A DNA stretch of 10,984 bases from Armatimonadota bacterium (GTDB lineage Bacteria > Armatimonadota > Fimbriimonadia > Fimbriimonadales > GBS-DC). Below, piece after piece: positions 1-10,984 of the stretch. The notes below the pieces were generated by a model. It was not told the DNA's origin. It saw only the letters and a program-made list of their open reading frames with translations, and ran no database searches. A program made the translations under genes and the position numbers. Numbering within the stretch: position 1 is the first letter of the stretch; each line of letters begins with the position of its first letter. The DNA is taken from contig JBBIJY010000044.1 in the NCBI GenBank assembly GCA_037445735.1, forward strand, positions 1 through 10,984. The letters run 5' to 3'.

Positions 1-357
1 GGCGTTGCGACCCGACACCGAATGCACAATCAGCACATCGCCCGCCTGAATAGGCACCTCGCGCACTGCCGTCGCGGCGTAGCCATCGAGCCGCTCCAGC
101 CACGAGGTGAGTGTGATGGGGCGCACATCACAGGTCAAGCCCGGAATAAAGATGGGGCTAATGGGCACCAGCCCGCCCGCGCGATAGACCAGCTCCTCGC
201 TGAGGATGCCCGCGTGCGACGCGCCGAACACCCAGATCAGGTGGTCGTCAGCGAGCGCGTCGGCAATCCACTGCGCCGCCTGCTCCATCACCGCCTGCTG
301 GCTCGCCATCACCGCCTGCAGGCGGGTCAGCACCTGCTGAAAGTAGTCCGTGCGCAT
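1..357 (-). CDS. SIS-domain (sugar isomerase / phosphosugar-binding) protein, UPF0309-like; 5' part only, runs off the left edge
   Basis: Not in the ORF track. Manual translation from ATG (complement 355-357) is open to position 1: MRTDYFQQVLTRLQAVMASQQAVMEQAAQWIADALADDHLIWVFGASHAGILSEELVYRAGGLVPISPIF...LERLDGYA...GDVLIVHSVSGRNA. VFGxSH, E..YRAGGL and GDVLIVHSxSGRN are typical of this SIS family. Confidence 0.88.
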   Translation of the reverse strand, partial: MRTDYFQQVLTRLQAVMASQQAVMEQAAQWIADALADDHLIWVFGASHAGILSEELVYRAGGLVPISPIFIPGLTCDVRPITLTSWLERLDGYAATAVREVPIQAGDVLIVHSVSGRNA

Positions 358-366
358 GGCGACCCG

Positions 367-374
367 ATTATACC
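367..374 (-). promoter_or_regulatory. Putative -10 element (GGTATAAT) for the SIS gene, overlapping the argF stop codon
   Basis: Minus strand reads GGTATAAT-cgggtcgcc-ATG: a consensus TATAAT 9 nt before the ATG, with no Shine-Dalgarno in between. Confidence 0.5.
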
Positions 375-1336
375 GCGCCGAGCATGAGGGCAATCAGCGC
401 TTTTTGCGTGTGGAGGCGGTTCTCTGCCTGATCCCACACGGCGGACTGCTCGCCGTCCAGCACCTCATCGGTGATCTCCTCACCGCGGCGGGCGGGCAGG
501 CAGTGCAGCACAATCGCGTCGGGTCTGGCATGCTGAATCAGGTCGCGGTTCACCTGAAATGGCTGGAAGTGGCGCAGGCGGATTTCGCGCTCGGTCTCGT
601 AGCCCATCGAGACCCACACATCGGTGTAGATGACATCGGCGTCGGCGACCGCCTCATGCGGGTTGTGTGTGAGCAGGAGTTGCCCGCCCGATTGCGTAGC
701 GTTGTGCTGTGCCTGTGCAAGAATTTGCTCGTCGGGTTCATAGCCTTCGGGCGTCGCCACGCGCACCGTGTGCCCCAGCAAGGTGCCGAGCAGGATGAAG
801 CTGTGACACACATTGTTGCCGTCGCCCACCCACGCCAGGGCGAGCGGTCGATCGCCTTTGCGCTCCTGAATGGTCATCAGGTCGGCTAATGCCTGGCAGG
901 GGTGTTCGCGGTCGCTGAGCGCGTTGATGACGGGCACGCCCGCGAACTGCGCCAGCTCGCCCAGCACCGAATGGTGGTAGACGCGCGCGATGATGCCCTG
1001 CACCCAGCGTCCCAGATTGCGAGCGATGTCCATCACCGCCTCGCGCTTGCCCATCTGGATGTCCGACTGAGTGAGGTAGACGCCGTGCGCACCCATCTGA
1101 TATAGCCCGACTTCTAAGGTGACGCGCGTGCGAAGGGAGGGCTTCTCGAAGATGAGCGCGACGGCGGTCGGCTTCTCGAATCGGAACAGCTCGGCGCCCG
1201 CGCGGGTGGCGCGTTTCATCGCGTGCGCCAGCGCCAGCACCACCTCCGCCGCCTCCCGATTAAGGTCAGTGATTGAGAGGAGATGCGACGGAGGAGTCGC
1301 ATTTTTCCAGTGATGATAGTAATCATCAAAATTCAT
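368..1336 (-). CDS. argF: Ornithine carbamoyltransferase
   Basis: Carbamoyl-phosphate motif FEKPSLRTR, HPCQALAD, GDGNNV, ornithine-binding DVWVSMG, HCLP and QAENRLH. GGAGAG lies upstream of the ATG. Confidence 0.95.
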   Translation of the reverse strand: MNFDDYYHHWKNATPPSHLLSITDLNREAAEVVLALAHAMKRATRAGAELFRFEKPTAVALIFEKPSLRTRVTLEVGLYQMGAHGVYLTQSDIQMGKREAVMDIARNLGRWVQGIIARVYHHSVLGELAQFAGVPVINALSDREHPCQALADLMTIQERKGDRPLALAWVGDGNNVCHSFILLGTLLGHTVRVATPEGYEPDEQILAQAQHNATQSGGQLLLTHNPHEAVADADVIYTDVWVSMGYETEREIRLRHFQPFQVNRDLIQHARPDAIVLHCLPARRGEEITDEVLDGEQSAVWDQAENRLHTQKALIALMLGAV

Positions 1337-1351
1337 TGAACCGCTCTCCGC

Positions 1352-2581
1352 TTACCACCGTTTTACACCCGATATGAGAAACTCCACCAGCTCTTTCTTG
1401 GAGTTGCGTTTACGCAACGGTTCGACTCGAATATGGTTTATTCCTGTCTCCTGCATCAGGCGTGCCAGTAGCTGTTCCGTCGGCACAATAACTTCGTAGA
1501 ACTTGGCGTTTCCCGCCACATAGTATATTTGCGCCCCTGCGTGCAGAAGATGACTCAGACTGTGGAGGTGTGTTCGCATGTCCTGAAAATAGCGCAGGAC
1601 ATAGCGTGAAAGCAGATGACTCCGCTTGTCGATAGCCTGTACCAGTTCGCGCAGTTCGGGCAGGGTAGCATAGAGGGATGGATCGTTGAGTTCGAGGCTT
1701 GTCAGGCGGCTGGTGGCAATGCCCCATGTGCCGCCGATGGCTTGCCAGTCCAGCTCACCTGCTTCGCGGGCATCTTTCAGGAAGCCCAGCCAGTAAAGGA
1801 AAGGGCGCACCTCACGGACATAGCTCATCCGATTTGGATAGGGCGGTGAGGTGATGACAATATCGTACAAACGCCCTGGCAGGCAATCCAGCGTGCGTGC
1901 ATCTCCAGCGAAGACTTCCGCTTCGCCGTTTAGCGCTTCCTGCGCAGAGCGCGCGATCCTGCGGGCAGTGTCCAGAAAATCATTCAGTATCAGACCTGAG
2001 TCTTCCTGCAAAAATAAGCTGGGTTCCGCCGCTTTGAAAGTCACTGAGGGGTGATGGTAGCCCGCGTTTGACCATCGTATCAGTGTTTGGCAGAAAGCAA
2101 TCAGGAGAAGATCGGCAACTTGCGGAGGTTCAGCCTCACAAAGGCAGCGGATGGCGGTATACAGGTGAGCCAGTGTGTAAAGGCGTTGAGGTGTCCACCA
2201 GCGATCAATGCGATGCATAGGCGGTATCCATTCGGGGGGTTGAGAGAAGTTGCGCTTGCTCTGAAGGACAGCCTGATAAGCCAGATTGATAGTGCGCTCG
2301 ACGCAGGTCGTCGGGTACTGCTGCACTTTCGCTCGCGCCAGCCACACAAGGAATGGATTAATCTCCACCATATCGCACTGGAAGCCCCGTTCAGCGCAGA
2401 CAAGCCCTGTTGTACCTGTGCCAGCAAAGGGGTCTAACACTCTGCTATGAACAGACGCCTGTTGAAGCAGTTGTTCCACAAGGGTAGCCGCATAGGCGGG
2501 CGTTAGTCGGAGCCAGCCATGCCGCCCATTGCGCAGGTTCGCCTTAAAAGTTAGCTCACTCCGCCGTGTTAACTTCTGCAT
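1352..2581 (-). CDS. DNA amino-methyltransferase, probably N4-cytosine-specific, alpha motif order (409 aa from MQKLTRR)
   Basis: SAM-binding motif I VLDPFAGTGTT near the N-terminus and catalytic motif IV ITSPPY far downstream (SPPY is typical of m4C MTases). Start placed at ATG 2579-2581, overlapping the end of the upstream gene by 26 bp; the longer ORF-track start lies inside the endonuclease gene. Confidence 0.88.
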   Translation of the reverse strand: MQKLTRRSELTFKANLRNGRHGWLRLTPAYAATLVEQLLQQASVHSRVLDPFAGTGTTGLVCAERGFQCDMVEINPFLVWLARAKVQQYPTTCVERTINLAYQAVLQSKRNFSQPPEWIPPMHRIDRWWTPQRLYTLAHLYTAIRCLCEAEPPQVADLLLIAFCQTLIRWSNAGYHHPSVTFKAAEPSLFLQEDSGLILNDFLDTARRIARSAQEALNGEAEVFAGDARTLDCLPGRLYDIVITSPPYPNRMSYVREVRPFLYWLGFLKDAREAGELDWQAIGGTWGIATSRLTSLELNDPSLYATLPELRELVQAIDKRSHLLSRYVLRYFQDMRTHLHSLSHLLHAGAQIYYVAGNAKFYEVIVPTEQLLARLMQETGINHIRVEPLRKRNSKKELVEFLISGVKRW

Positions 2582-3374
2582 CGCCCAACAACACTCCCAG
2601 AATACCCTGCACAGTTTCTCGCAACGCCGAGCTATTTCGCTCGAAAAAGCCTGCCAGATCAAATCCGATGACCGAGTGGCAGAACGCATAGGTGGAACGA
2701 GTGGGATCGTTTCCCCTACTGCCCCGCAAGAGGAGCCATTTTGCACCCATGTATCGCTGAGCCACCACCTCGTCAATCTGTTCGGATAGCACGAGCATCA
2801 CTGGCATATAGCCTGCTGCATAGGCGCGGACTGCGCTTTGAATGTCAGCGTTCTGCCGCTTCGAATCGCGACTCTTGTAGCCCTGTCGCACCTCGAAAAC
2901 GACTCCTTGCAGGCGCCCCGGATCGACATCCTGCAGCCGCTGAGCGGCATCGTGCATCCATGCAGAAAATCGCTCGCGAGCATCGGGGGACCTGATGGCG
3001 TCCCGCTGAACCCTTGCATCCAGCTCCAGAAAGGCGATCCTGCCCGCCTCCCGCTGCACCTGATAGCGCCATTCGATCTGCTTTTTACTGAGTCCCAGAT
3101 GGTCAATCACTATTTGTTGAAAGAGTCTCTGGCAGCCAATCCCCAGCTGGCGGTACAGCGAAGTGATACCGCCACCTGCACGATGTGTTTTATAGACCAG
3201 CGTTGTATCCAGACCAATCCAGTGATAGAAAGGGTCAGCTGCATACTGCTGGAGAAATCGCTCGAGGGAGACAGGTTCCTGTCCACCCAATCGAGGCTGG
3301 TATCCCCGACAAACCTCGAGGGCGTCCAGTAAGATGCGAAGATAGCGCTCCTCTCGTTCGCTCGTCGTTCTCAT
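2556..3374 (-). CDS. Putative Type II restriction endonuclease (PD-(D/E)xK-like), 272 aa
   Basis: Directly upstream of and overlapping the MTase, with typical REase size and a candidate catalytic pattern LELDAR...VVFEVRQGYKSRDSKRQNAD. Its ATG (3372-3374) overlaps the gltX TGA (ATGA). Assignment rests on context plus a motif-like pattern. Confidence 0.7.
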   Translation of the reverse strand: MRTTSEREERYLRILLDALEVCRGYQPRLGGQEPVSLERFLQQYAADPFYHWIGLDTTLVYKTHRAGGGITSLYRQLGIGCQRLFQQIVIDHLGLSKKQIEWRYQVQREAGRIAFLELDARVQRDAIRSPDARERFSAWMHDAAQRLQDVDPGRLQGVVFEVRQGYKSRDSKRQNADIQSAVRAYAAGYMPVMLVLSEQIDEVVAQRYMGAKWLLLRGSRGNDPTRSTYAFCHSVIGFDLAGFFERNSSALRETVQGILGVLLGDAEVNTAE

Positions 3375-4834
3375 GCTGTGTACACCCACTGTTGTGCCTG
3401 GCGGAGTCGGCGCAGCACGCGCGGCTTGCCCAGCACTTCCAGCATCTCAAAGAGGCTCGGTCCTGTCGTGCGCCCGCTGACCGCCACGCGCACAGGATGG
3501 ATCACAGACCCGCCCGACACGCCCAGCCAGGCAATCACCTCGCGCGTCACGCGCTCAATCTCGGGCGCCACAAACGGCTCCAGCGCCTCATACCGCCGGA
3601 TCAGCTCCTCCAGCATCTGCGGGATGTGCGGCAGACCATACCACTTCTTGACCGCACTCTGGTCAATCGGGAACTCCTCTTTGAAGAAGAAGTCGGTCAG
3701 TGTCACCACATCTTTGAGGGTTTTCATCTTCTCCTGCTCCAGCGGGATGACCCGCTCCGCATAGGCGCGGGTCTCGTCATCCAGCGCGGGCGGCAGAAGC
3801 CCTGCCTCCTGCAGGAAGGGCAGGCAGCGCTCCACCAGTTCCTGCGGGCTGAGCTGGCGAATGTAATAGCCGTTCATCCAGAGCAGTTTGTTGTGATCAA
3901 AGATAAAGGGGTTATCCGAGACGCGCTCCAGACGGAACAGCTGAATAATCTCCTCGCGGCTGAGAATCTCGCGGTTGTCGCCGGGGTTCCAGCCGCAGAG
4001 CGCGAGAAAGTTGAACATGGCTTCGGGCAGGTAGCCGTCGCGAATGAACTCGGTGAACTGCACGGCGCCGTGCCGCTTGGAGAGCTTCTGGCGGTCGACG
4101 CCGAGCAGCAGGGGCAGGTGCGCGAACTGGGGCGGCTTCCAGCCCAGCGCCCTATAGAGATTGAGATGACGCGGCATGCTCGAAATCCACTCATCGCCCC
4201 GAATCACATGGGTGATCTCCATCAGGTGGTCATCCACCACATTGGCGAGATGGTAGGTCGGGTAGCCGTCCGATTTGAGCATCACAAAATCGTCGGTGAG
4301 CGCGTTGCGGAAGGTGGTGCGCCCGTGAATCAGGTCGTCGTACTCCACCGTGCCTTCCAGCGGCATGGCGAAACGGATCACATAGGGCAGTCCGTCCGCC
4401 TCGCGGGCGCGCACTTCGGCGGGCGTGAGGCGTCGGCAACGGCGGTCGTACATCGTGACGGATGCACCCTGCGCCCGCTGCTGTGCTCGCATCTGCTCCA
4501 GCTCTTCGGGCGTGCAGAAGCACTTGTATGCTTTGCCCGCCTCCACCAGCTGGTGCGCAATCTGCTGATAAATCGCCAGCCGCTGCGACTGGTGATAGGG
4601 CGCGTGCGGACCGCCCACTTCGGGTCCCTCGTCCCAGTCCAGCCCCAGCCAGCGCAGCGATTCTAAGATTTCGCGCTCCGATTCAGGCACATAGCGGCTG
4701 CGGTCGGTGTCCTCGATGCGCACGATGAACTTGCCGCCGTGATGGCGAGCGAACAGCCAGTTGAAGAGCGCGGTGCGAATGTTGCCCACATGGGGCGCTC
4801 CCGTCGGGCTTGGTGCGTATCGTACCCTTACCAT
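3371..4834 (-). CDS. gltX: Glutamate--tRNA ligase (487 aa from MVRVRYAPSPTG)
   Basis: RYAPSPTG, HIGH-type HVGN, RIEDTD, CFC...YDRRC zinc-binding region, VVDDH..ITHVIRG, KMSKS-type KLSKR, and a C-terminal anticodon-binding domain (PVRVAVSG..GPSLFE). GGAGAGG lies upstream of ATG 4832-4834. Confidence 0.97.
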   Translation of the reverse strand: MVRVRYAPSPTGAPHVGNIRTALFNWLFARHHGGKFIVRIEDTDRSRYVPESEREILESLRWLGLDWDEGPEVGGPHAPYHQSQRLAIYQQIAHQLVEAGKAYKCFCTPEELEQMRAQQRAQGASVTMYDRRCRRLTPAEVRAREADGLPYVIRFAMPLEGTVEYDDLIHGRTTFRNALTDDFVMLKSDGYPTYHLANVVDDHLMEITHVIRGDEWISSMPRHLNLYRALGWKPPQFAHLPLLLGVDRQKLSKRHGAVQFTEFIRDGYLPEAMFNFLALCGWNPGDNREILSREEIIQLFRLERVSDNPFIFDHNKLLWMNGYYIRQLSPQELVERCLPFLQEAGLLPPALDDETRAYAERVIPLEQEKMKTLKDVVTLTDFFFKEEFPIDQSAVKKWYGLPHIPQMLEELIRRYEALEPFVAPEIERVTREVIAWLGVSGGSVIHPVRVAVSGRTTGPSLFEMLEVLGKPRVLRRLRQAQQWVYTA

Positions 4835-4852
4835 CGGCTCAACCTCTCCATC

Positions 4853-4870
4853 GGTAAAAGAGATTTTACC
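4853..4870 (-). promoter_or_regulatory. Putative gltX -10 element (GGTAAAAT, 4863-4870) within a 7-bp inverted repeat
   Basis: GGTAAAA(4853-4859)-gaga-TTTTACC(4864-4870). Minus-strand TAAAAT lies about 28 nt before the gltX ATG, upstream of its SD. Confidence 0.4.
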
Positions 4871-4932
4871 TGCTGCACCTCTGGGAGCCGCCTTCCCTCC
4901 GGAAGGATGGTTCAAGGGCGAGGGCAACTCCT

Positions 4933-5100
4933 GAGGGTGTTCGGAAATTCGGGGCATAGTATCGACCTGAGTGAAGCCCCCTCACCCGTACCCTCTCCCC
5001 CGCCTGCGGGGGAGAGGGGCTAATGACTCCCTCCCCCCGCTGGGGAGAGGGTCGGGGTAAGGGGCAGCCTTTCCTCTGGTTGGATTTTTCGAACACCCTC
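4933..5100. mobile_element. MITE-like non-autonomous element, 168 bp
   Basis: Terminal inverted repeats GAGGGTGTTCGGAAATTC (4933-4950) and GATTTTTCGAACACCCTC (5083-5100), 16/18 match. Immediately flanked by GCAACTCCT (4924-4932) and GCAACCCCT (5101-5109), an 8/9 direct repeat. No transposase. Confidence 0.7.
4978..5064. repeat. GC-rich palindromic intergenic repeat (RIME/CIR-like architecture) inside the MITE
   Basis: Outer arms CCCCTCACCCGTACCCTCTCCCC (4978-5000) and GGGGAGAGGGTCGGGGTAAGGGG (5042-5064) match 20/23 as an inverted repeat. Perfect 13-bp hairpin at 4991-5003/5006-5018 and a second imperfect hairpin at about 5027-5051. Confidence 0.85.
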
Positions 5101-5108
5101 GCAACCCC

Positions 5109-5138
5109 TTGACATTCCTGTCTTGAACAGGGTATCCT
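5109..5138 (+). promoter_or_regulatory. Housekeeping-type promoter for the sigma-factor gene
   Basis: TTGACA (5109-5114), 18-nt spacer, TATCCT (5133-5138, preceded by GG), then SD GGAGG (5152-5156) and ATG 5163. Confidence 0.65.
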
Positions 5139-5162
5139 GCTTTTATCCAGCGGAGGTCAGCG

Positions 5163-5797
5163 ATGCCCGCAAAGAAGCGAGCAAAGGAGCAAGCGGTGCA
5201 TCCAGCAAAATCTCAACCACCATCGCAACTTCGCGGGGGGGGGGTGAACCTGAGTTGGCTGAACTCAATCCCGCTCTGCGCAAAGCCATTCGCCGCGCTG
5301 TTCGGCGCTTCCGACCCACATGCCCACCACCGAACTGGAGCCAGTCCGAATGGCAGGACGAACTCCTGCACGAAGCCGTTCTATGTGCCTTGCAAGCCGA
5401 ACAGGAGTTTGAACCTGAGCGGGGTGTGTGTCTGGAAAAGTTCGCCTATGATCGCATCTGCGCTCATCTGAAGACTTTCACCAACCGCGAGTGGGGTTAT
5501 CAGAAGGCGGTAGTCGCATTTGAAGAAGATGAGGAAACAGGCGAAGTGTGGGAGCCTGTAGATGAGCGGAGTATGGAGGCTTATGAACAGTTAGAGGCTC
5601 GGGTGTTAGTGGAGTGGTTGCGGGGTCAGCTGGAGGAGTGGGAATACCAGTTATGGGTGTGGGTAGCAAAGAAGCGTTCGTATCGGTGGATTGGAAAGCA
5701 GTTAGGAGTCTCGCATGAGGTAGTGCATCGGCGATGGAAACGGTTGCAGGCGAAGCTGCGGGCACTGTTGGAGAATCGGGGTCAAAAAGAGAGATAG
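5163..5797 (+). CDS. Small sigma-70-family (ECF-sized) RNA polymerase sigma factor, frameshifted at a G10 tract as sequenced
   Basis: Region-2-like segment ELLHEAVLCALQAEQEFEPERGVCLEKFAYDRI and region-4 HTH SYRWIGKQLGVSHEVVHRRWKRLQAKLR are in the 5123..5797 frame. The SD-supported ATG 5163 is in another frame and joins it only with G11 or G8 (211 or 210 aa). Alternative in-frame start: TTG 5255. Confidence 0.8.
5235..5244 (+). repeat. G10 homopolymer tract (candidate slipped-strand or frameshift site)
   Basis: CTTCGC-GGGGGGGGGG-TGAACCT; the longest homopolymer seen in the window. Confidence 0.9.
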
Positions 5798-5850
5798 AGG
5801 TGTTGACAAAGAGCAATCGCGGGGCAACTCCATTTAATGGAGGTGCGAGA

Positions 5851-6327
5851 ATGAAAACAAAGGATCTTTTGATGAGGAACGGTGTTGCGAACCAGCGCAA
5901 CGCGGTACGGTTGTTGGGGATACTGGTGTTGTTGATGTTATATCTTCATGCCCTCGGTCAGCAGGAAGAGCCAAGGGAGCTTCCGGATCACAAGTGCGTA
6001 CTTCGCCCGGCAGGTTACTTGTGGCAGCAGAACAGTTGCTTGCAATCGATTGAACCTAACCCAGCTCCTACGGAAGCATATACCCTGTTTGGTTGCTCTG
6101 GTGGATGCCTCAGAGGTAAAACAGATCAAGACATTTATATATGTGAATTTAATCGTGGCACGAGCTGCCTTATGCGTCAGATGGGGTCCTTTGAGATCAG
6201 AGTAACAGAAATTGCCGATTGTGAACCAGCTGGTTCGGGATGCGATTGCATTGATTGGAGACCTGCAGATCCATCCACACCACCACGACTTATTTTTTAT
6301 CCCGATTGTTCAGCACCACCGCAATAG
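5851..6327 (+). CDS. Secreted cysteine-rich hypothetical protein (158 aa, 10 Cys in the mature region)
   Basis: SD GGAGG 5839-5843 and ATG 5851. Basic N-region, hydrophobic stretch LLGILVLLMLYLHALG, likely cleavage ALG|QQ, and 10 Cys including CSGGC and GCDC. Confidence 0.75.
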   Translation: MKTKDLLMRNGVANQRNAVRLLGILVLLMLYLHALGQQEEPRELPDHKCVLRPAGYLWQQNSCLQSIEPNPAPTEAYTLFGCSGGCLRGKTDQDIYICEFNRGTSCLMRQMGSFEIRVTEIADCEPAGSGCDCIDWRPADPSTPPRLIFYPDCSAPPQ

Positions 6328-6359
6328 AAACGCGTTGGCACTAAGGGAGGTGATCGAAA

Positions 6360-7550
6360 ATGATTCGAAAATGGCATGCCTGGTGGGCACTTGTTTCCAT
6401 GTTCACAGTGGCGGGGCTTACAATACGGTTCTCGATCGCTGCTTGTAGTGAGACTTCTAAGAGCGAGTTGGCTGATTGGAGTGCAAAGCGTCAACAAGTT
6501 GCTCGTAGTCACACTTTTATCTGGAATGTGGCGGGTATGCTGCATATTCCTAAGGAGGCTGTTTGGGGGAATATGATAAGTACTTTACTAATTGCTCAAA
6601 AAATATTAGAACAAAAAATTTCGTCAGCTTCTGAACAAGTTAATTGGTGGAAATATAATATTTCAATGATTAATCCACCGCAAATGGATTTATTTGCTTC
6701 TGGAATATCAGAAAACTATATTATTACCAATAGTCCGCACATTGTTCACATTGCCGCATATAGGGAAAGACTGGCTTCTTATGAGGCTACTGACAAAATT
6801 GCGGAGACCTTCGAAGTTTACTTTCAAAACGAGCTCGTTGTTCATTTGCGTAATCAGGGTTCGGTAGTCGCGGATATTGCGCTCCATCCTGCAGGTACTG
6901 TCAGCATGGGTGATCCTTTCGAAACCTTTATAGGACCGGCATTTTTAGTTTTTCTGGCGGGTGTTCCTCCTCTCTGTATGTTTGCTGGCAGCGAGAAAGA
7001 CTGGCAGTTAGTCGCCACGACTCCTGATGAATGGGTTTATGAGCGCAAAACCCCTGATAATTGGGAGTTAGAACTTCATGTAAGTCGAATCCACAAAGGG
7101 GCCCCAAAGAGCCTTCTGATGCGTCGTACTGGTGCCCAGTTCTATTGGAATGTGCTGCAATTCACTCAAATTGATGGACAATGGTTTCCATTAGAAATAG
7201 AAATGATATATGAATATTATGACTTAACAACCCCTGCGACTCGTGAGGATATTGAGAAGATTTTAGAAAACTATATCGTGAAAGATGATAATGGAAGAGA
7301 GCAGGCGATCGTTTCTCTACCCTTACATCGTTGCAGCAGACCCTCTATGAGTAGGCGTCGCTACATGTTGGTTAGTGCCAAGCCAGCGAGCACCGCCTGT
7401 TTCACGCTGCCTCAGGGTACCTTCGTGCGTGATTGGCGATTAAGCGGTGGTAACCTCTGGCACAAGGGAAATGGAATAGTGGTCGAATACACATGGGAAG
7501 GTTTTCTACCAGACCTAGAAACACTGAATCAGAAGGCGCATGCCAAATAG
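6360..7550 (+). CDS. Exported or membrane-anchored hypothetical protein (396 aa)
   Basis: Long open frame in AT-richer DNA with SD GGAGG 6346-6350. N-terminal signal-like segment MIRKWHAWWALVSMFTVAGLTI followed by lipobox-like IAAC; the body looks rich in beta-strands. No family recognised. Confidence 0.75.
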   Translation: MIRKWHAWWALVSMFTVAGLTIRFSIAACSETSKSELADWSAKRQQVARSHTFIWNVAGMLHIPKEAVWGNMISTLLIAQKILEQKISSASEQVNWWKYNISMINPPQMDLFASGISENYIITNSPHIVHIAAYRERLASYEATDKIAETFEVYFQNELVVHLRNQGSVVADIALHPAGTVSMGDPFETFIGPAFLVFLAGVPPLCMFAGSEKDWQLVATTPDEWVYERKTPDNWELELHVSRIHKGAPKSLLMRRTGAQFYWNVLQFTQIDGQWFPLEIEMIYEYYDLTTPATREDIEKILENYIVKDDNGREQAIVSLPLHRCSRPSMSRRRYMLVSAKPASTACFTLPQGTFVRDWRLSGGNLWHKGNGIVVEYTWEGFLPDLETLNQKAHAK

Positions 7551-7557
7551 AGTGGAT

Positions 7558-8793
7558 TCAACGGTGTTGAGCTTCACGAGGATTCACCTCCTCTAACTGA
7601 TGCAGAGCCGACTCGTACTGTTCTATCAGGTGGTGGACGACTTCGCGCACGGGCTGGGGGTTCGCGCCAGCGGCGCTGGGGGTGATAATCTGGCGGATGG
7701 CATTCAGCGGGTGTTTACGGCGCCTGGCAACCGATAGCAGCCAGTCGCATGCCTGGTCGGGCGGCAGGTGCGTGTCGTAGCCGTTGATCTGCAGGAAGGT
7801 CAGCACGCCAATCAGCGCAGTGCCCGGATTGCCGCGCGCGAAGGGGCGATAGGTCAGATAGCCCCACAGGAACCGCGCCGCCTGCAACGGTACATCCATG
7901 CTCTGGCGATAGCTGTATTGATAGCAGGTCGCCTCCTCTAAGCGGTCGTAGTTGTATGGCTGGGGCGCGCCTGTGATTTCGGTGTTAATCCAGATGAGGT
8001 CCTGCACGGTGAGGTATCGCCAGCGCGAGGCGGGACCGGGCACGGGCTGCGGGCTGACAGGCATCATGGCGGGCAGGGTGTCGCGCTGTGCGAGCTGCTG
8101 CCTTTCCCGAAGCGCTCGCTCCGCCCGCACCAGCGAATCGCGATAATCGGCAATCATCTGCTCAATCAGGTCGGCATAGGTGAGGCGAGTCGTGCTCTCG
8201 TCGGGCTGAAGGGACAACGATGCCCATTCACCTGATAGCAACCGTTCGGCTGCCTCATCAGGCGAGAGCGTGGCGCGGAAGCCGTTCGCGCCCAGAAACG
8301 CCAGCGCTGCAATCGATGCGGTGGTGGCGTTGTATTCGCGAAACGGCTGCAGGGTGTTGAGCGCATCAAAAAGCGCGGCGGCTCGCTGAAGTGCGTCCGC
8401 ATCAGGCGGGGTCAGCATCGTTAGTAGTCGCGCACGGTTCAGGCGGTCGGCGTCGCACTCGGGCGGCGCGAGGCAGATGCGCTCGTTGATCAGCTGGAGG
8501 TCGCTCGCGGTGGGATAGCGCCAGCGGTCGCGCTGAACCGCCGCGCGCCGAATCGCCCTGCCGTGCGCTTCAAGCTGCTCCAGCAGAATGGGCAGAGTCT
8601 CATGGTTCAGCGGTCGCGCCGCTTGAAAGGCATCTAACAGGCTCTCCTGCAGCGGTTCGTCCAGTGCGTCCAGCCCTGTGTTCACCGCCTGCAGCCAGCG
8701 GGCAAGTTCCAGCCAGGCGGGTGAGCCATCCGTCAATATCTTCTCCCGCAGGCTATCGGTCAACTCCATGAGTGTATCGCGTAGTGCGTCCAT
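7558..8793 (-). CDS. Protein with two degenerate Fic/Doc (Fido) domains (411 aa from MDALRDTL)
   Basis: Two similar modules: WRYPTASDLQLINERI...AAALFDALNTLQPFREYNATTASIAALAFLGANG and WRYLTVQDLIWINTEI...AARFLWGYLTYRPFARGNPGTALIGVLTFLQINGY, resembling the Doc core HPFxDGNKRTA...FL..NG. The start could instead be the Met 8 codons downstream. Confidence 0.8.
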   Translation of the reverse strand: MDALRDTLMELTDSLREKILTDGSPAWLELARWLQAVNTGLDALDEPLQESLLDAFQAARPLNHETLPILLEQLEAHGRAIRRAAVQRDRWRYPTASDLQLINERICLAPPECDADRLNRARLLTMLTPPDADALQRAAALFDALNTLQPFREYNATTASIAALAFLGANGFRATLSPDEAAERLLSGEWASLSLQPDESTTRLTYADLIEQMIADYRDSLVRAERALRERQQLAQRDTLPAMMPVSPQPVPGPASRWRYLTVQDLIWINTEITGAPQPYNYDRLEEATCYQYSYRQSMDVPLQAARFLWGYLTYRPFARGNPGTALIGVLTFLQINGYDTHLPPDQACDWLLSVARRRKHPLNAIRQIITPSAAGANPQPVREVVHHLIEQYESALHQLEEVNPREAQHR

Positions 8794-8806
8794 CGTGCCG
8801 TTGAGA

Positions 8807-8814
8807 ATTGTACC
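8807..8814 (-). promoter_or_regulatory. Putative -10 element (GGTACAAT) for the Fic-domain gene
   Basis: Minus strand reads GGTACAAT, 13 nt, ATG(8793), with no SD. Confidence 0.45.
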
Positions 8815-8874
8815 TGCCTGCTGACAGGAAGAGGCGCACGGGCGGTGAACTATCCGCATCGGAGGGATGTACCG

Positions 8875-9597
8875 ATGGAACAGCTGTTTGCGGGTCAGGT
8901 CGCGCTGATCACAGGTGGCGGACGGGGTATTGGCGCATGTATCGCTCGCCTGCTAACGCAACAGGGCGCTCAGGTGATGCTTGTTGCCCGCACCGAGAGC
9001 CAGCTTCAGCAGGTTGCGGGTCAGATTGAGGCGGCGGGCGGCAGGGCGTTTTATTGTGTTGCCGATGTCGCCGACGAGCCAGCCATTCGCGCAGCGATTG
9101 AGCGCACGCGCCAGCTCACCGGGCGAATCGATATCCTGATCAATAACGCTGGCTCGGCGCGGGCGGGACTCATCGAACAGAGCGATCCTGCCGAGTGGTG
9201 GCAGGTGGTGGAGAGCAACCTGAAGGGGCTGTACCTGACCACGCGATTCACGCTGCCGATTATGCTGGAGCAGGGGCGGGGACAGATTGTGAACATGCTC
9301 ACGATTGCTGCCAGTCGCGCCTTCACGGGCTTGAGCGCGTACAGCTGCGCCAAAGCTGCCGGGCTGATGTTCACGCGCGTTCTCTCTAAAGAGGTGCGCA
9401 AGCGTGGCATTCGGGTCACGGCGGTGTTGCCGGGCGCGGTGGACACCGTGCTGTGGGATGCGTTCCCGACCGCGCCCGAACGCGAGCGCATGATCCGACC
9501 TGAAACCGTCGCCCGGATTGTGGTGCAGATTCTCGCCACACCACCGGACGCCAGCATCGACGAGATTGTCATTCTGCCGCCAGAGGGCATTCTGTAG
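8875..9597 (+). CDS. Classical short-chain dehydrogenase/reductase (240 aa), likely NADP(H)-preferring
   Basis: [15 protein letters not shown], catalytic YSCAK (YxxxK) and PGAVDT. Basic Arg in LVART at the cofactor-specificity position. SD GGAGG 8861-8865 before ATG 8875. Confidence 0.93.
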
Positions 9598-9600
9598 CGG

Positions 9601-9608
9601 GGTATACT
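9601..9608 (+). promoter_or_regulatory. Putative -10 element (GGTATACT) for a near-leaderless trpB transcript
   Basis: GGTATACT-cgcctgcg-ATG(9617) in the 19-nt gap after the SDR stop, with no canonical SD. Confidence 0.5.
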
Positions 9609-9616
9609 CGCCTGCG

Positions 9617-10813
9617 ATGACCTACACACTGCCTGATGAGAAGGGTTATTTCGGTCGGTATGGGGGGCGATATGTGCCTGAAACGCTCATTCCTGCCCTG
9701 GAGGAGCTGACCGACGCCTACCTGCGCTTTCGCGATGACCCCGACTTCCAGCGCGAGCTGAACTACTATCTGATCACCTTTGCAGGGCGCCCGACGCCGC
9801 TCTATTTCGCGTTCAATCTCAGTCGGGCGACGGGTCATCAGGTCTATCTGAAGCGTGAGGACCTGTGCCACACGGGAGCGCACAAAATCAATAATGCGCT
9901 GGGTCAGGCGTTGCTGGCGCGTAAGATGGGCAAACGGCGCATTATCGCCGAAACGGGCGCGGGTCAGCACGGCGTCGCGACTGCCACCGCCTGCGCCCTG
10001 CTGGGACTGGAGTGCGAAATCTATATGGGTGCGGAAGACATGGCGCGGCAGGCGCTGAATGTGTTCCGCATGCAGCTGCTGGGCGCGAAGGTGCATCCCG
10101 TCCGGAGCGGCACCGCCACGCTCAAAGACGCCACCAGCGAAGCCATCCGCGACTGGGTCACCAATGTGCGCACGACCCATTATATCATCGGCTCCTGCGT
10201 GGGACCGCATCCGTATCCATCGATGGTGCGCGATTTTCAGGCGGTGATCGGGCGCGAGGCGCGGGAGCAGATTGTCGCCTACGCAGGTCGCCTGCCCGAT
10301 GTGGTGCTGGCGTGTGTGGGCGGCGGCAGTAATGCGATTGGAATCTTCTATCCCTTTATTGAGGATGAAACGGTGCGCCTGATCGGGGTGGAGGCGGCGG
10401 GCAGGGGACTCGAAACGGGCGAGCATGCTGCCAGCCTCGTCGCGGGCGAGTACGGCATCCTGCACGGCAGCGCAAGCCTCATCCTGCAGGACGAGAACGG
10501 GCAGATTCGCACCACGCACTCGGTCTCCGCAGGGCTGGACTATCCGGGCGTGGGACCCGAGCATGCCTATCTGAAGGAGATTGGGCGGGCGGAGTATGTG
10601 GCGGTTTCGGACGAGCAGGCGCTGGGCGCGTTCGCGTGGCTGGCGCGACACGAGGGCATCATCCCCGCGCTGGAGTGCGCCCACGCCTTCGCCTACTTGC
10701 AAACTCTCGCACCCCAGCTGCCCGAAAACTCGGTGATTTTAATCAATCTGTCCGGTCGCGGCGATAAAGATGTGCAGCATGTGGCGCAGCTGATGGCTCA
10801 ATCGAGTGTCTGA
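9617..10813 (+). CDS. trpB: Tryptophan synthase beta subunit (TrpB1 type, 398 aa from MTYTLPD)
   Basis: [18 protein letters not shown]-lysine motif [54 protein letters not shown] and NLSGRGDKD. Confidence 0.97.
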
Positions 10814-10914
10814 CCTTCATGAAGGTGCAGGAGAAGCCGCCCGCCAGGTTTAATCCCAACCAGCAGGAATCGCGCTGAACAAGGCGAATCGATATGCTAT
10901 AGCAGGAGGCAACG

Positions 10915-10984
10915 ATGCCTGCCCGGTGTGAGGCTCGGATTGTTGATAAGCGGGCAGAGCGCTCACGCGATAGCGCTCTCGTCC
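10915..10984 (+). CDS. Start of an unidentified ORF (MPARCEARIVDKRAERSRDSALV...), truncated by the window edge
   Basis: Strong SD AGGAGG (10904-10909) 5 nt before ATG 10915; frame open to the end; too short to assign. Confidence 0.45.
   Translation, partial: MPARCEARIVDKRAERSRDSALV

Follow-up and report, generated by a model that had tools for sequence, protein, structure and literature searches.

A restriction-modification pair between gltX and argF

The analysed stretch of DNA, referred to here as the window, comprises 10,984 nt and corresponds to contig JBBIJY010000044.1 of assembly GCA_037445735.1, from an Armatimonadota bacterium of the GBS-DC family (Fimbriimonadales). The draft source genome (G000) has 59 contigs and 2.78 Mb, the window being one whole small contig. 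On the reverse strand, two genes lie between gltX (3371..4957; TIGR00464, E 2.8e-164), the upstream flank, and argF (368..1336; PF00185 and PF02729), the downstream flank. The first encodes a candidate Type II restriction endonuclease (REase) of 272 aa (P0001; 2556..3374), the second a DNA methyltransferase (MTase) of 409 aa (1352..2581), and the start of the MTase gene overlaps the end of the REase gene by 26 nt.

The 272-aa protein matches the PADLOC REase_II profile PDLC03512 (E 6.3e-76; residues 5-263 align with positions 8-273 of the 276 in the profile) and has no match in Pfam or NCBIfam. Its AF2 model has a pLDDT of 86.5. As to a PD-(D/E)XK nuclease fold, which REases of orthodox Type II systems have, a Foldseek search with this model gave no match at E <= 0.001; the top VIA-align matches are REases, i.e., PspGI (Z 7.4, rmsd 6.2, 169 aligned) and EcoO109I (Z 7.0), at a level where Z values below 8 are common. 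The protein has more than 1900 homologues, and the 120 listed are unnamed or called 'hypothetical protein', with the exception of one odd DUF1722 label. In the MTase translation, whose start was set at Met66 of a 474-aa ORF as homologue alignments begin near residue 65-71, motif I (FAGTGTTG) precedes motif IV (SPPY), which points to N4-cytosine or N6-adenine as the target. The protein matches PF01555 weakly and PADLOC MTase_II profiles down to E 3e-28. PDB searches with the pair returned generic MTase matches only.

Of 80 loci in a wide range of phyla, 76 have an MTase homologue within 200 nt downstream of the REase homologue or overlapping it; the four loci without an adjoining MTase are all cyanobacterial. 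With its small REase, overlapping downstream MTase and conserved gene order, the pair resembles orthodox Type II operons of the XcyI/Cfr9I and BsoBI/AvaI type, and the genome also encodes a paralogue of its MTase, adjacent to an XcyI/BsoBI-like REase. It differs from these systems in that its REase belongs to no Pfam or NCBIfam family. The GC3 values of the two genes are 0.585 and 0.60, compared to 0.759 +/- 0.065 for the genome, and the pair holds no ACGT, GGCC or CTAG. The pair is a real, widespread and horizontally mobile Type II restriction-modification (R-M) module. ACGCGT is missing from the surroundings of carriers more often than any other palindromic 6-mer (24 of 53 loci), with a weak signal within the family; as a candidate site of the pair this is a weak lead.

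Depletion of ACGT, GGCC and CTAG in the genome and the family

ACGT is absent from both strands of the window (1..10984), while 200 dinucleotide-preserving shuffles contain 27.07 copies on average (sd 4.66). The first-pass annotation had reported this absence from the letters, with ACG and CGT both common, and the counts bear this out: the sub-words occur 104 and 145 times, respectively. It had put the expectation at roughly 40 sites; the zero-order expectation is 40.5, and a Markov-2 model gives 15.6. The annotation had also proposed Markov-corrected k-mer counts for window and genome. Genome-wide, ACGT is far from expectation, with 167 sites observed against 5848 expected (O/E 0.029, Markov-2, 2.78 Mb). 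Among the 256 tetranucleotides its O/E is the lowest; next come GGCC (603 against 18184, O/E 0.033) and CTAG (109 against 3227, O/E 0.034). All contigs give the same ACGT pattern, the O/E being 0.022 within called genes and 0.078 outside, and the 167 residual sites are Poisson-scattered (variance/mean 1.1). Even the 5% of genes with the lowest GC3, which are compositionally foreign, are depleted 11-fold (17 against 193). Besides the three tetranucleotide palindromes, the depletion reaches some ten longer words of the restriction type, among them ACGCGT (O/E 0.09), GAGCTC (0.10), GAGCCC (0.08), CCWGG (0.32) and the CYCGRG-type words CTCGAG (0.19), CCCGAG (0.31) and CCCGGG (0.32).

The depletion extends through the family. 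Of 24 family genomes, surveyed in stretches no longer than 20 kb each, 21 have an ACGT O/E that does not exceed 0.18; the exceptions are G004 (0.90), G008 (0.51) and G005 (0.36), determined in 80-103 kb. In 16 genomes from four sister families, the pooled count is 924 against 910 and not a single genome is depleted. The window is thus one unexceptional sample of a genome-wide and family-wide depletion. The purge is still enforced today, as illustrated by the comparison of the source genome with its relative G002. The two are 94.1% identical over 382,615 aligned columns and 81% of all 4-mers are conserved, but none of their 29 ACGT sites (15 in the source genome, 14 in G002) is held in common. 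The same is true for CTAG, with 0 of 24 sites conserved.

The depletion works on DNA and not on proteins, since coding and non-coding sequences are both purged and synonymous codon choice removes ACGT in all three reading frames. In the ten window genes, NAT|GTN occurs 26 times and NAC|GTN never, although NAC accounts for 234 of 440 such codons elsewhere in the same genes; the T-ending codons before Val that had been read as ACGT avoidance are therefore real. Throughout the source genome, GAC|GTN is found 8 times against 2233 for GAT|GTN, although GAC makes up 60% elsewhere, and ACG|T and A|CGT stand at 0.7% against 41.8% and 0.6% against 11.2%, respectively. The footprint reaches the dipeptide level as well. 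The O/E of [D/N/H/Y]-Val is 0.62-0.85 in the source genome and 0.60-0.76 in depleted relatives, compared to 0.98-1.04 in non-depleted families. For Trp-Pro, whose codons cannot escape GGCC, 160 copies are observed against 860 expected.

A draft assembly and a window consisting of one small contig could raise the suspicion of an assembly or binning artefact, or of chance in a short sequence. The chance of this being the case is negligible and this explanation was rejected: the pattern recurs in all contigs and in independent assemblies of the family, is lacking from those of the sister families and is written into codon-pair usage, while the Poisson probability of finding no site with 15.6-27 expected is below 1e-6.

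Restriction-modification systems and the role of the window pair

The genome is rich in R-M genes. PF01555 has 22 matches at 19 places, so that 18 N4/N6-MTase loci are present besides the one in the window, and the number of matches per genome is 4-23 in the family and 0-9 in the sister families. Two of the depleted words appear to have a resident cognate system. A homologue of RE_MjaI (E 2.4e-28) adjoins an MTase and matches the depletion of CTAG, which is the site that MjaI recognizes (PMC11033074), and the XcyI/BsoBI-like REase mentioned above matches the depletion of CYCGRG. Searches with Pfam, NCBIfam and PADLOC identified neither an REase nor an MTase specific for ACGT in the source genome or its relatives, which is weak evidence, as about ten MTases of the source genome have unclassified neighbours. 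GGCC enzymes of the NgoPII and HaeIII types were not found either, in searches that matched no control genome and therefore carry little weight. None of the four genomes of the genus, the source genome included, has a C5-cytosine MTase (PF00145), and an ACGT methylase in this genus would thus have to be an N4C or N6A enzyme; within the family, PF00145 is present in 6 of 24 genomes, including the non-depleted G004. A putative archaeal ACGT m5C MTase is listed in PMC11033074. A 2026 preprint on hot-spring Fimbriimonadia (10.64898/2026.06.24.734251) reports a large number of methylated motifs, CTAG, CCWGG and CTCGAG among them; the motifs in its main text include neither ACGT nor plain GGCC.

The first-pass annotation had put forward the window pair itself as the candidate ACGT system. 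According to this explanation, the site recognized by the MTase and the 272-aa protein is ACGT, alone or as the core of a longer site, and the pair has driven the depletion. The pair is indeed a real Type II module, the SPPY motif is compatible with m4C, its own DNA is free of ACGT and the family members with an intact copy (G001, G016 and G017) are strongly depleted (30 against 1266). However, the depletion is independent of the pair. In two sister genomes, G002 (gltX 98.8% identical) and G003, gltX abuts argF and the pair is absent, and the ACGT O/E is nevertheless 0.05 and 0.04; the rapid site turnover described above is seen in G002, which has no pair. The depletion is as strong in no fewer than 15 additional members of the family that lack an orthologue. 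G013 and G015 carry pseudogene copies, and their samples nevertheless give 0.14 and 0.00. Elsewhere, 67 loci with homologous pairs contain 2945 ACGT sites against 3125 expected, with a pooled and median O/E of 0.94. Seven of these fall below 0.7, and only one, the Armatimonadota relative L051, falls below 0.5, the cut-off for strong depletion. This carrier comparison presumes that a resident system as a rule leaves its mark as avoidance of its site, and that specificity is the same among homologues with 45-50% identity. By these proxy tests the proposed role is not upheld and is very unlikely: with 18 other N4/N6-MTase loci at hand, the pair is probably one of many R-M systems in this genome and not responsible for the loss of ACGT.

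Probable restriction pressure and alternative explanations

The avoidance of restriction sites, i.e., of short palindromes, in prokaryotic genomes is said to have been described by Gelfand and Koonin in 1997, Rocha et al. in 2001 and Rusinov et al. in 2015-2018. ACGT is the recognition site of the Type II enzymes MaeII, TaiI and HpyCH4IV, of which thermophile sources are known, and GGCC and CTAG are cut by HaeIII and MaeI, respectively. Short-palindrome avoidance is stated in general terms in PMC11033074. The present case agrees with such avoidance in that classic Type II palindromes are under-represented after Markov correction and that the avoided set is lineage-specific, with CTAG and CYCGRG matching resident R-M genes. 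The present case differs from known site avoidance in that three tetranucleotides are at approximately 3% of expectation over most of a family, no residual ACGT site is held in common at 94% identity, the effect on dipeptides is measurable and no cognate system was identified for ACGT and GGCC.

We consider long-term Type II restriction pressure, with the window pair as one mobile module and not the agent, to be the best explanation of the family-wide purge, with an estimated probability of roughly 0.62. Such lasting pressure fits because the depletion is family-wide and still enforced, and because other depleted words match resident R-M genes. For ACGT itself, we infer restriction as the selective agent by analogy with CTAG and CYCGRG, since no ACGT-specific enzyme was identified. 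The earlier suggestion that the lineage has long carried an ACGT-specific system is thus retained as far as long restriction pressure is concerned, and not for the specific system. In the proposed course of events, ACGT, GGCC and CTAG would each be held near 3% of expectation in this thermophile-type Fimbriimonadales lineage by selection that removes new sites, as the chromosome, or the DNA exchanged among relatives, would be exposed to Type II enzymes. These enzymes would circulate densely and turn over fast in the lineage, and the pair inserted between gltX and argF is one such mobile module.

Alternatively, the sites could be lost by mutation without selection, when methylated ACGT, GGCC and CTAG decay, for instance by deamination of 5-methylcytosine, or are subject to biased repair. 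The low CTAG content of other bacteria is ascribed to repair bias, and a hypermutable site would give equally short-lived residual sites. Several elements make this explanation improbable. Besides the lack of C5-MTases in the genus and their scarcity in the family, the C-to-T products ATGT and ACAT show no particular enrichment (O/E 1.15-1.16, with 1.13-1.36 for other neighbours); of the 29 differing ACGT sites, just 2 have them as the partner state, compared to 18 with GCGT/ACGC. A purely mutational process would moreover have to override protein-level selection to lose four fifths of Trp-Pro, and would have to hit three unrelated palindromes as well as the longer restriction-type words.

It is also conceivable, though doubtful, that selection is real but that its agent is a restriction enzyme without full cognate methylation, or a transmission bias among recombining cells. 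The family would then be immune to several 4-bp cutters mainly by means of a site-free genome and not by methylation, the agent against ACGT being an unprotected enzyme or a population filter. New sites of the three palindromes would disappear so fast that two genomes with 6% divergence have none in common. In the first variant, cells would be immune to their own enzyme by having no sites; in the second, many sets of R-M systems would be present in a recombining population and only site-free alleles and mobile DNA would pass between cells. Ordinary avoidance due to resident R-M systems would not predict an O/E as low as 0.03 together with rapid turnover, since a fully protective methylase should leave selection weak; this counts against the preferred explanation. 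An approximately 35-fold depletion that is still enforced is hard to square with fully methyl-protected sites. The failure to find a cognate ACGT system, the 11-fold depletion of compositionally foreign genes and the foreign-looking pair free of all three palindromes, as if incoming DNA were filtered, point in the same direction. On the other hand, the 167 scattered sites that persist imply temporary tolerance of sites, genes of foreign appearance may stem from relatives with the same avoidance, and the empty database searches weigh little, as noted above.

Under lasting restriction pressure, the preferred explanation, the family is a natural example, exceptionally clear and extreme, of such pressure shaping a whole genome, with three tetranucleotides depleted approximately 35-fold family-wide, footprints that reach codon pairs and amino-acid dipeptides, and direct evidence of a continuing purge. 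The non-depleted G004 and the intermediate G005 and G008 provide natural contrasts within the family that are usable to find the enzymes and to time the gain or loss of avoidance. In practice, DNA meant for these organisms should be free of ACGT, GGCC, CTAG and the depleted 6-mers, and thermostable 4-bp cutters as well as N4/N6 methylases are likely to be obtainable from the lineage. If immunity by absence of sites were true, the pressure would reshape proteins, i.e., Trp-Pro and [D/N/H/Y]-Val, and would filter the mobile DNA that enters these bacteria.

Depleted words in the window and in the genome

The tetranucleotide ACGT is missing from both strands of the window, while dinucleotide-preserving shuffles give an expectation of 27.07 +/- 4.66 sites. 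Its absence had been noticed in the first-pass annotation, whose rough expectation of about 40 sites corresponds to the zero-order figure of 40.5; a Markov-2 model expects 15.6. Its further remarks, that ACG and CGT are both common and that codons ending in T are preferred before valine codons, also hold: ACG was counted 104 times and CGT 145 times, with 26 NAT-GTN pairs vs 0 NAC-GTN pairs in the ten window genes. In other contexts, NAC makes up 234/440 of the choices in the same genes.

The Markov-corrected count that the annotation had proposed for the whole genome (G000; 2,782,722 bases, 59 contigs, 62% G+C, with the window being all of contig C44) confirms the depletion of ACGT and shows that it is much broader than previously described. 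ACGT occurs 167 times against 5848 expected, an observed/expected ratio (O/E, Markov-2) of 0.029. Together with GGCC (603 vs 18184, O/E 0.033) and CTAG (109 vs 3227, O/E 0.034), it forms the lowest three among the 256 tetranucleotides, the next in rank being CCGG (0.42), GATC (0.50) and AATT (0.50). Longer words of restriction type are depleted as well, i.e., GAGCCC/GGGCTC (0.08), ACGCGT (0.09), GAGCTC (0.10), CTCGAG (0.19), GAGCAC (0.20), AGATCT (0.27), GTGCAC (0.28), CCCGAG (0.31), CCWGG (0.32), CCCGGG (0.32) and words of the CCNNGG type (0.3-0.5).

The residual ACGT sites are distributed in a near-Poisson way (variance/mean 1.1 in 5-kb windows), and no preference for flanking bases was found among them. 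The possibility that the 5-kb windows richest in these sites are rRNA operons was rejected, as an Rfam search there gave no match. CRISPR-like 30-nt repeats with 36-nt spacers are present at contig ends (ends of C20, C41 and C9, and C45:4385-4480 and 10529-10671). In C45, 4 of the 167 genomic ACGT sites arise where a preceding AC meets the GTTTC start of the repeat; four spacers searched against viral_contigs gave 0 matches. Genes of foreign composition, taken as the lowest 5% in GC3, have an ACGT O/E of 0.088 (17/193), compared to 0.016-0.024 in typical genes. In the window, an island of low GC3 (0.40-0.58) at 5123-7550 (+), encoding an ECF-type sigma factor followed by two ORFs without family (197 and 396 aa), holds the only GGCC (7100), CTAG (7515), ACGCGT (6330) and GAGCTC (6831). 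It is conserved in the relative G002 at 87-93% identity. A 433-aa protein (7558-8859, -), which has a weak Fic/DOC match (PF02661, E 7e-8; TIGR01550 below cut-off), is conserved in G002 (91%) and in another relative, G003 (61%).

Codon choice, dipeptides and turnover of sites

The effect on coding sequence was analyzed with 2030 ORF-based gene calls for G000, an approximate set in which the restriction endonuclease (REase) gene of the window is replaced by an ORF on the opposite strand. ACGT is rarer in genes (O/E 0.022) than elsewhere (0.078), and synonymous choice purges it from all three reading frames. Asp-Val is encoded 8 times by GAC-GTN and 2233 times by GAT-GTN, while GAC accounts for 60-61% in other contexts, and Asn, His and Tyr codons behave in the same way before Val. 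The Thr codon ACG is used in 0.7% of cases before a codon starting with T and in 41.8% otherwise; the Arg codon CGT in 0.6% after a codon ending in A and in 11.2% otherwise. GGCC is avoided in genes in a similar manner. As Trp-Pro (TGG CCN) imposes an unavoidable GGCC, this dipeptide is itself lost, with 160 occurrences vs 860 expected (O/E 0.19).

The same pipeline was applied to relatives. In 16 samples from sister families, Asp, Asn, His or Tyr followed by Val has an O/E of 0.98-1.04, with 496 NAC-GTN and 388 NAT-GTN pairs, and Trp-Pro has an O/E of 0.50; the last value is 0.71 in G004, a non-depleted member of the family. In the depleted family samples, the Val dipeptides fall to 0.60-0.76 (20 NAC-GTN, 675 NAT-GTN) and Trp-Pro to 0.31, and in G000 the Val dipeptides have an O/E of 0.62-0.85 (39 and 5439 pairs). 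Site avoidance has therefore shifted dipeptide use besides codon choice, thereby altering protein composition in the depleted genomes.

The purge of ACGT is ongoing, as illustrated by the alignment of approximately 455 kb of G002 to G000 (382,615 columns, 94.1% identity). Of 15 ACGT sites in G000 and 14 in G002, 0 are shared, although conservation stands at 81% for 4-mers overall and at 77-88% for neighbouring words. If about 0.78 of sites are conserved, the probability of finding 0/15 shared is, by our own arithmetic, near 1e-10. CTAG behaves likewise (0/24 shared), and for GGCC 23 sites are shared between 61 in G000 and 46 in G002. Two other words differ between these genomes: GTGCAC (32 in G000, 6 in G002, 2 shared) and GAGCAC (61 and 34). 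Such lineage-specific differences suggest that one of the two genomes has recently acquired or lost a system of the GTGCAC or GWGCWC type.

A mutational origin of the depletion is disfavoured by three elements. First, no C5-methyltransferases were found in G000; in the family they occur in 6/24 genomes, none of them within the genus of G000. Secondly, C-to-T products are not enriched; at differing ACGT sites, the partner word is ATGT or ACAT in 2/29 cases, and GCGT or ACGC in 18/29. Thirdly, Trp-Pro dipeptides are lost.

Spread among relatives and the pair between gltX and argF

The argF homologues that come closest carry the names Armatimonadota, Fimbriimonadales and 'bacterium HR15'. When 40 related genomes (24 of the family, 16 of four other families of the order) were sampled in stretches no longer than 20 kb, ACGT had an O/E <=0.18 in 21/24 family genomes, while the other families together had 924 sites observed vs 910 expected. 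Larger samples gave 24/478 (observed/expected) in G001, 35/994 in G002, 0/215 in G016 and 6/574 in G017. The exceptions within the family are G004 (ACGT 0.90, GGCC 0.80), G005 (ACGT 0.36, GGCC 0.04) and G008 (ACGT 0.51, GGCC 0.06, CTAG 0.06). A sister-family genome, G038, has another pattern, with GGCC at 15/113, TCGA at 5/56 and CATG at 9/67. The avoided words are therefore lineage-specific, changing at the scale of genera. A literature search found no paper on such ACGT/GGCC/CTAG depletion in Armatimonadota.

The window itself carries a candidate agent between gltX and argF, consisting of a methyltransferase (MTase; 1352-2581, -; start at Met66 of a long ORF, motif I preceding SPPY) and a 272-aa REase candidate (2556-3374, -). 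Along its full length, the latter fits the PADLOC REase_II profile PDLC03512 (E 6.3e-76); profile searches found no Pfam or NCBIfam family. Its AF2 model (pLDDT 86.5) had no Foldseek match at E <= 0.001, and VIA-align ranked restriction enzymes at the top (PspGI Z 7.4, EcoO109I Z 7.0, then EcoRII-C, PfoI and NgoMIV), Z values that are only suggestive of a restriction-enzyme fold. The protein has >1900 homologues of 45-70% identity in many phyla; almost all of them lack a name or are called 'hypothetical'. A homologue of the window MTase is the next gene in 76/80 genome loci. Four cyanobacterial loci (L081, L084, L085 and L117; Nostoc, Microcoleus and others) have an REase homologue of 44-46% identity, with no window-MTase homologue detected within the locus; this REase may pair with another methylase or act alone as a nuclease.

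The pair has a GC3 of 0.585-0.60 vs 0.759 +/- 0.065 for the genome. It occupies the same position in G000 and G001, with identities of 68% (MTase) and 69% (REase), compared to 83% for argF and 90% for gltX. In G002 (gltX 98.8% identical) and G003, gltX abuts argF with nothing between. In G013 (C67:7393-8732) and G015 (C11:16265-17661), window-MTase orthologues are broken by 4-5 stop codons, being decaying versions of the module. Within the 819-bp REase gene lie 2 of the genome's 109 CTCGAG sites (3261 and 3315).

The annotation had read the missing ACGT as restriction pressure, with this pair as a candidate agent. The first part is supported; the second is not, as G002 and G003 lack the pair and are equally poor in ACGT (O/E 0.05 and 0.04), with the same site turnover in G002. 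Moreover, in 67 carrier loci of >=8 kb (1.17 Mb in total; 13/80 shorter loci were dropped), ACGT is close to expectation (2945/3125, pooled and median O/E 0.94). It falls below 0.7 in 7/67 and below 0.5 in 1/67, an Armatimonadota MAG. Several results thus speak against the pair as the ACGT system and none for it. A contrast of carriers and non-carriers within the family, ranking ACGT first, was rejected as an artefact of the large samples from the three non-depleted genomes.

Among palindromic 6-mers, none is missing around carriers as often as ACGCGT (24/53 loci with >=2 expected; pooled 96/255, O/E 0.38, from carrier loci alone), and in aligned DNA it is rarer in G000 (8) than in G002 (19). 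Within the family, an early signal (1/31) became weaker once more sequence was added, as carriers have 16/77 (G001), 0/40 (G016) and 8/101 (G017) and non-carriers an O/E of 0.21. With counts drawn from carrier loci and a weak contrast within the family, ACGCGT is treated as no more than a lead to a site that the pair might recognize. PDB sequence searches and plasmid tblastn found no specificity for the pair, and all clusters from the ESM Atlas were 'hypothetical', the leads there being TdeIII/HinfI-like and ApaLI-like ones at 0.87.

Restriction-modification repertoire and origin of the avoidance

G000 has 22 PF01555 matches in 19 places and two N6_Mtase matches, one of which is a Type IIG enzyme. 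Per genome, PF01555 matches (E <= 1e-10) number 4-23 in the family and 0-9 in sister families; the sister family with 0-1 shows no depletion. Cognate genes for CTAG and CYCGRG are present in G000. One MTase neighbours a RE_MjaI homologue (E 2.4e-28), MjaI being described as a CTAG enzyme with an m4C partner (PMC11033074). Beside a paralogue of the window MTase lies an XcyI/BsoBI-like protein, in agreement with the CYCGRG-type depletion. Other MTase neighbours include one more PADLOC REase_II, while about 10 MTases have neighbours without any family. A SfiI-like protein (C1:34185-35036, E 3.1e-53) adjoins an MTase at C1:33236-34333. The SfiI site, GGCCNNNNNGGCC, holds GGCC twice, which makes this homologue curious in a genome nearly free of GGCC. 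NgoPII- and HaeIII-family GGCC enzymes were searched for and none were found; the control genomes gave no match either. A hot-spring epigenome preprint of 2026 describes many methylated motifs spread through Fimbriimonadia, among them CTAG, CCWGG, GGNCC, AGCT, GANTC, CATG, CTCGAG as well as GCATGC; in its main text, ACGT occurs only within GACGTC, for another genome (10.64898/2026.06.24.734251).

Read most economically, the pattern is an extreme form of classical restriction-site avoidance. Type II systems are dense and quickly exchanged in this lineage; every new ACGT, GGCC or CTAG site would be costly and would be removed. For ACGT and GGCC, we infer the restriction agent. Ordinary avoidance explains the strength of the purge poorly, as a site under full methylation should be close to neutral. 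There is thus room for a less conventional and, in our judgement, improbable reading, in which restriction acts with incomplete methylation or exchanged DNA passes through a filter. Taken as classical restriction-site avoidance, the phenomenon is of a known kind; the case of this lineage is new and extreme.
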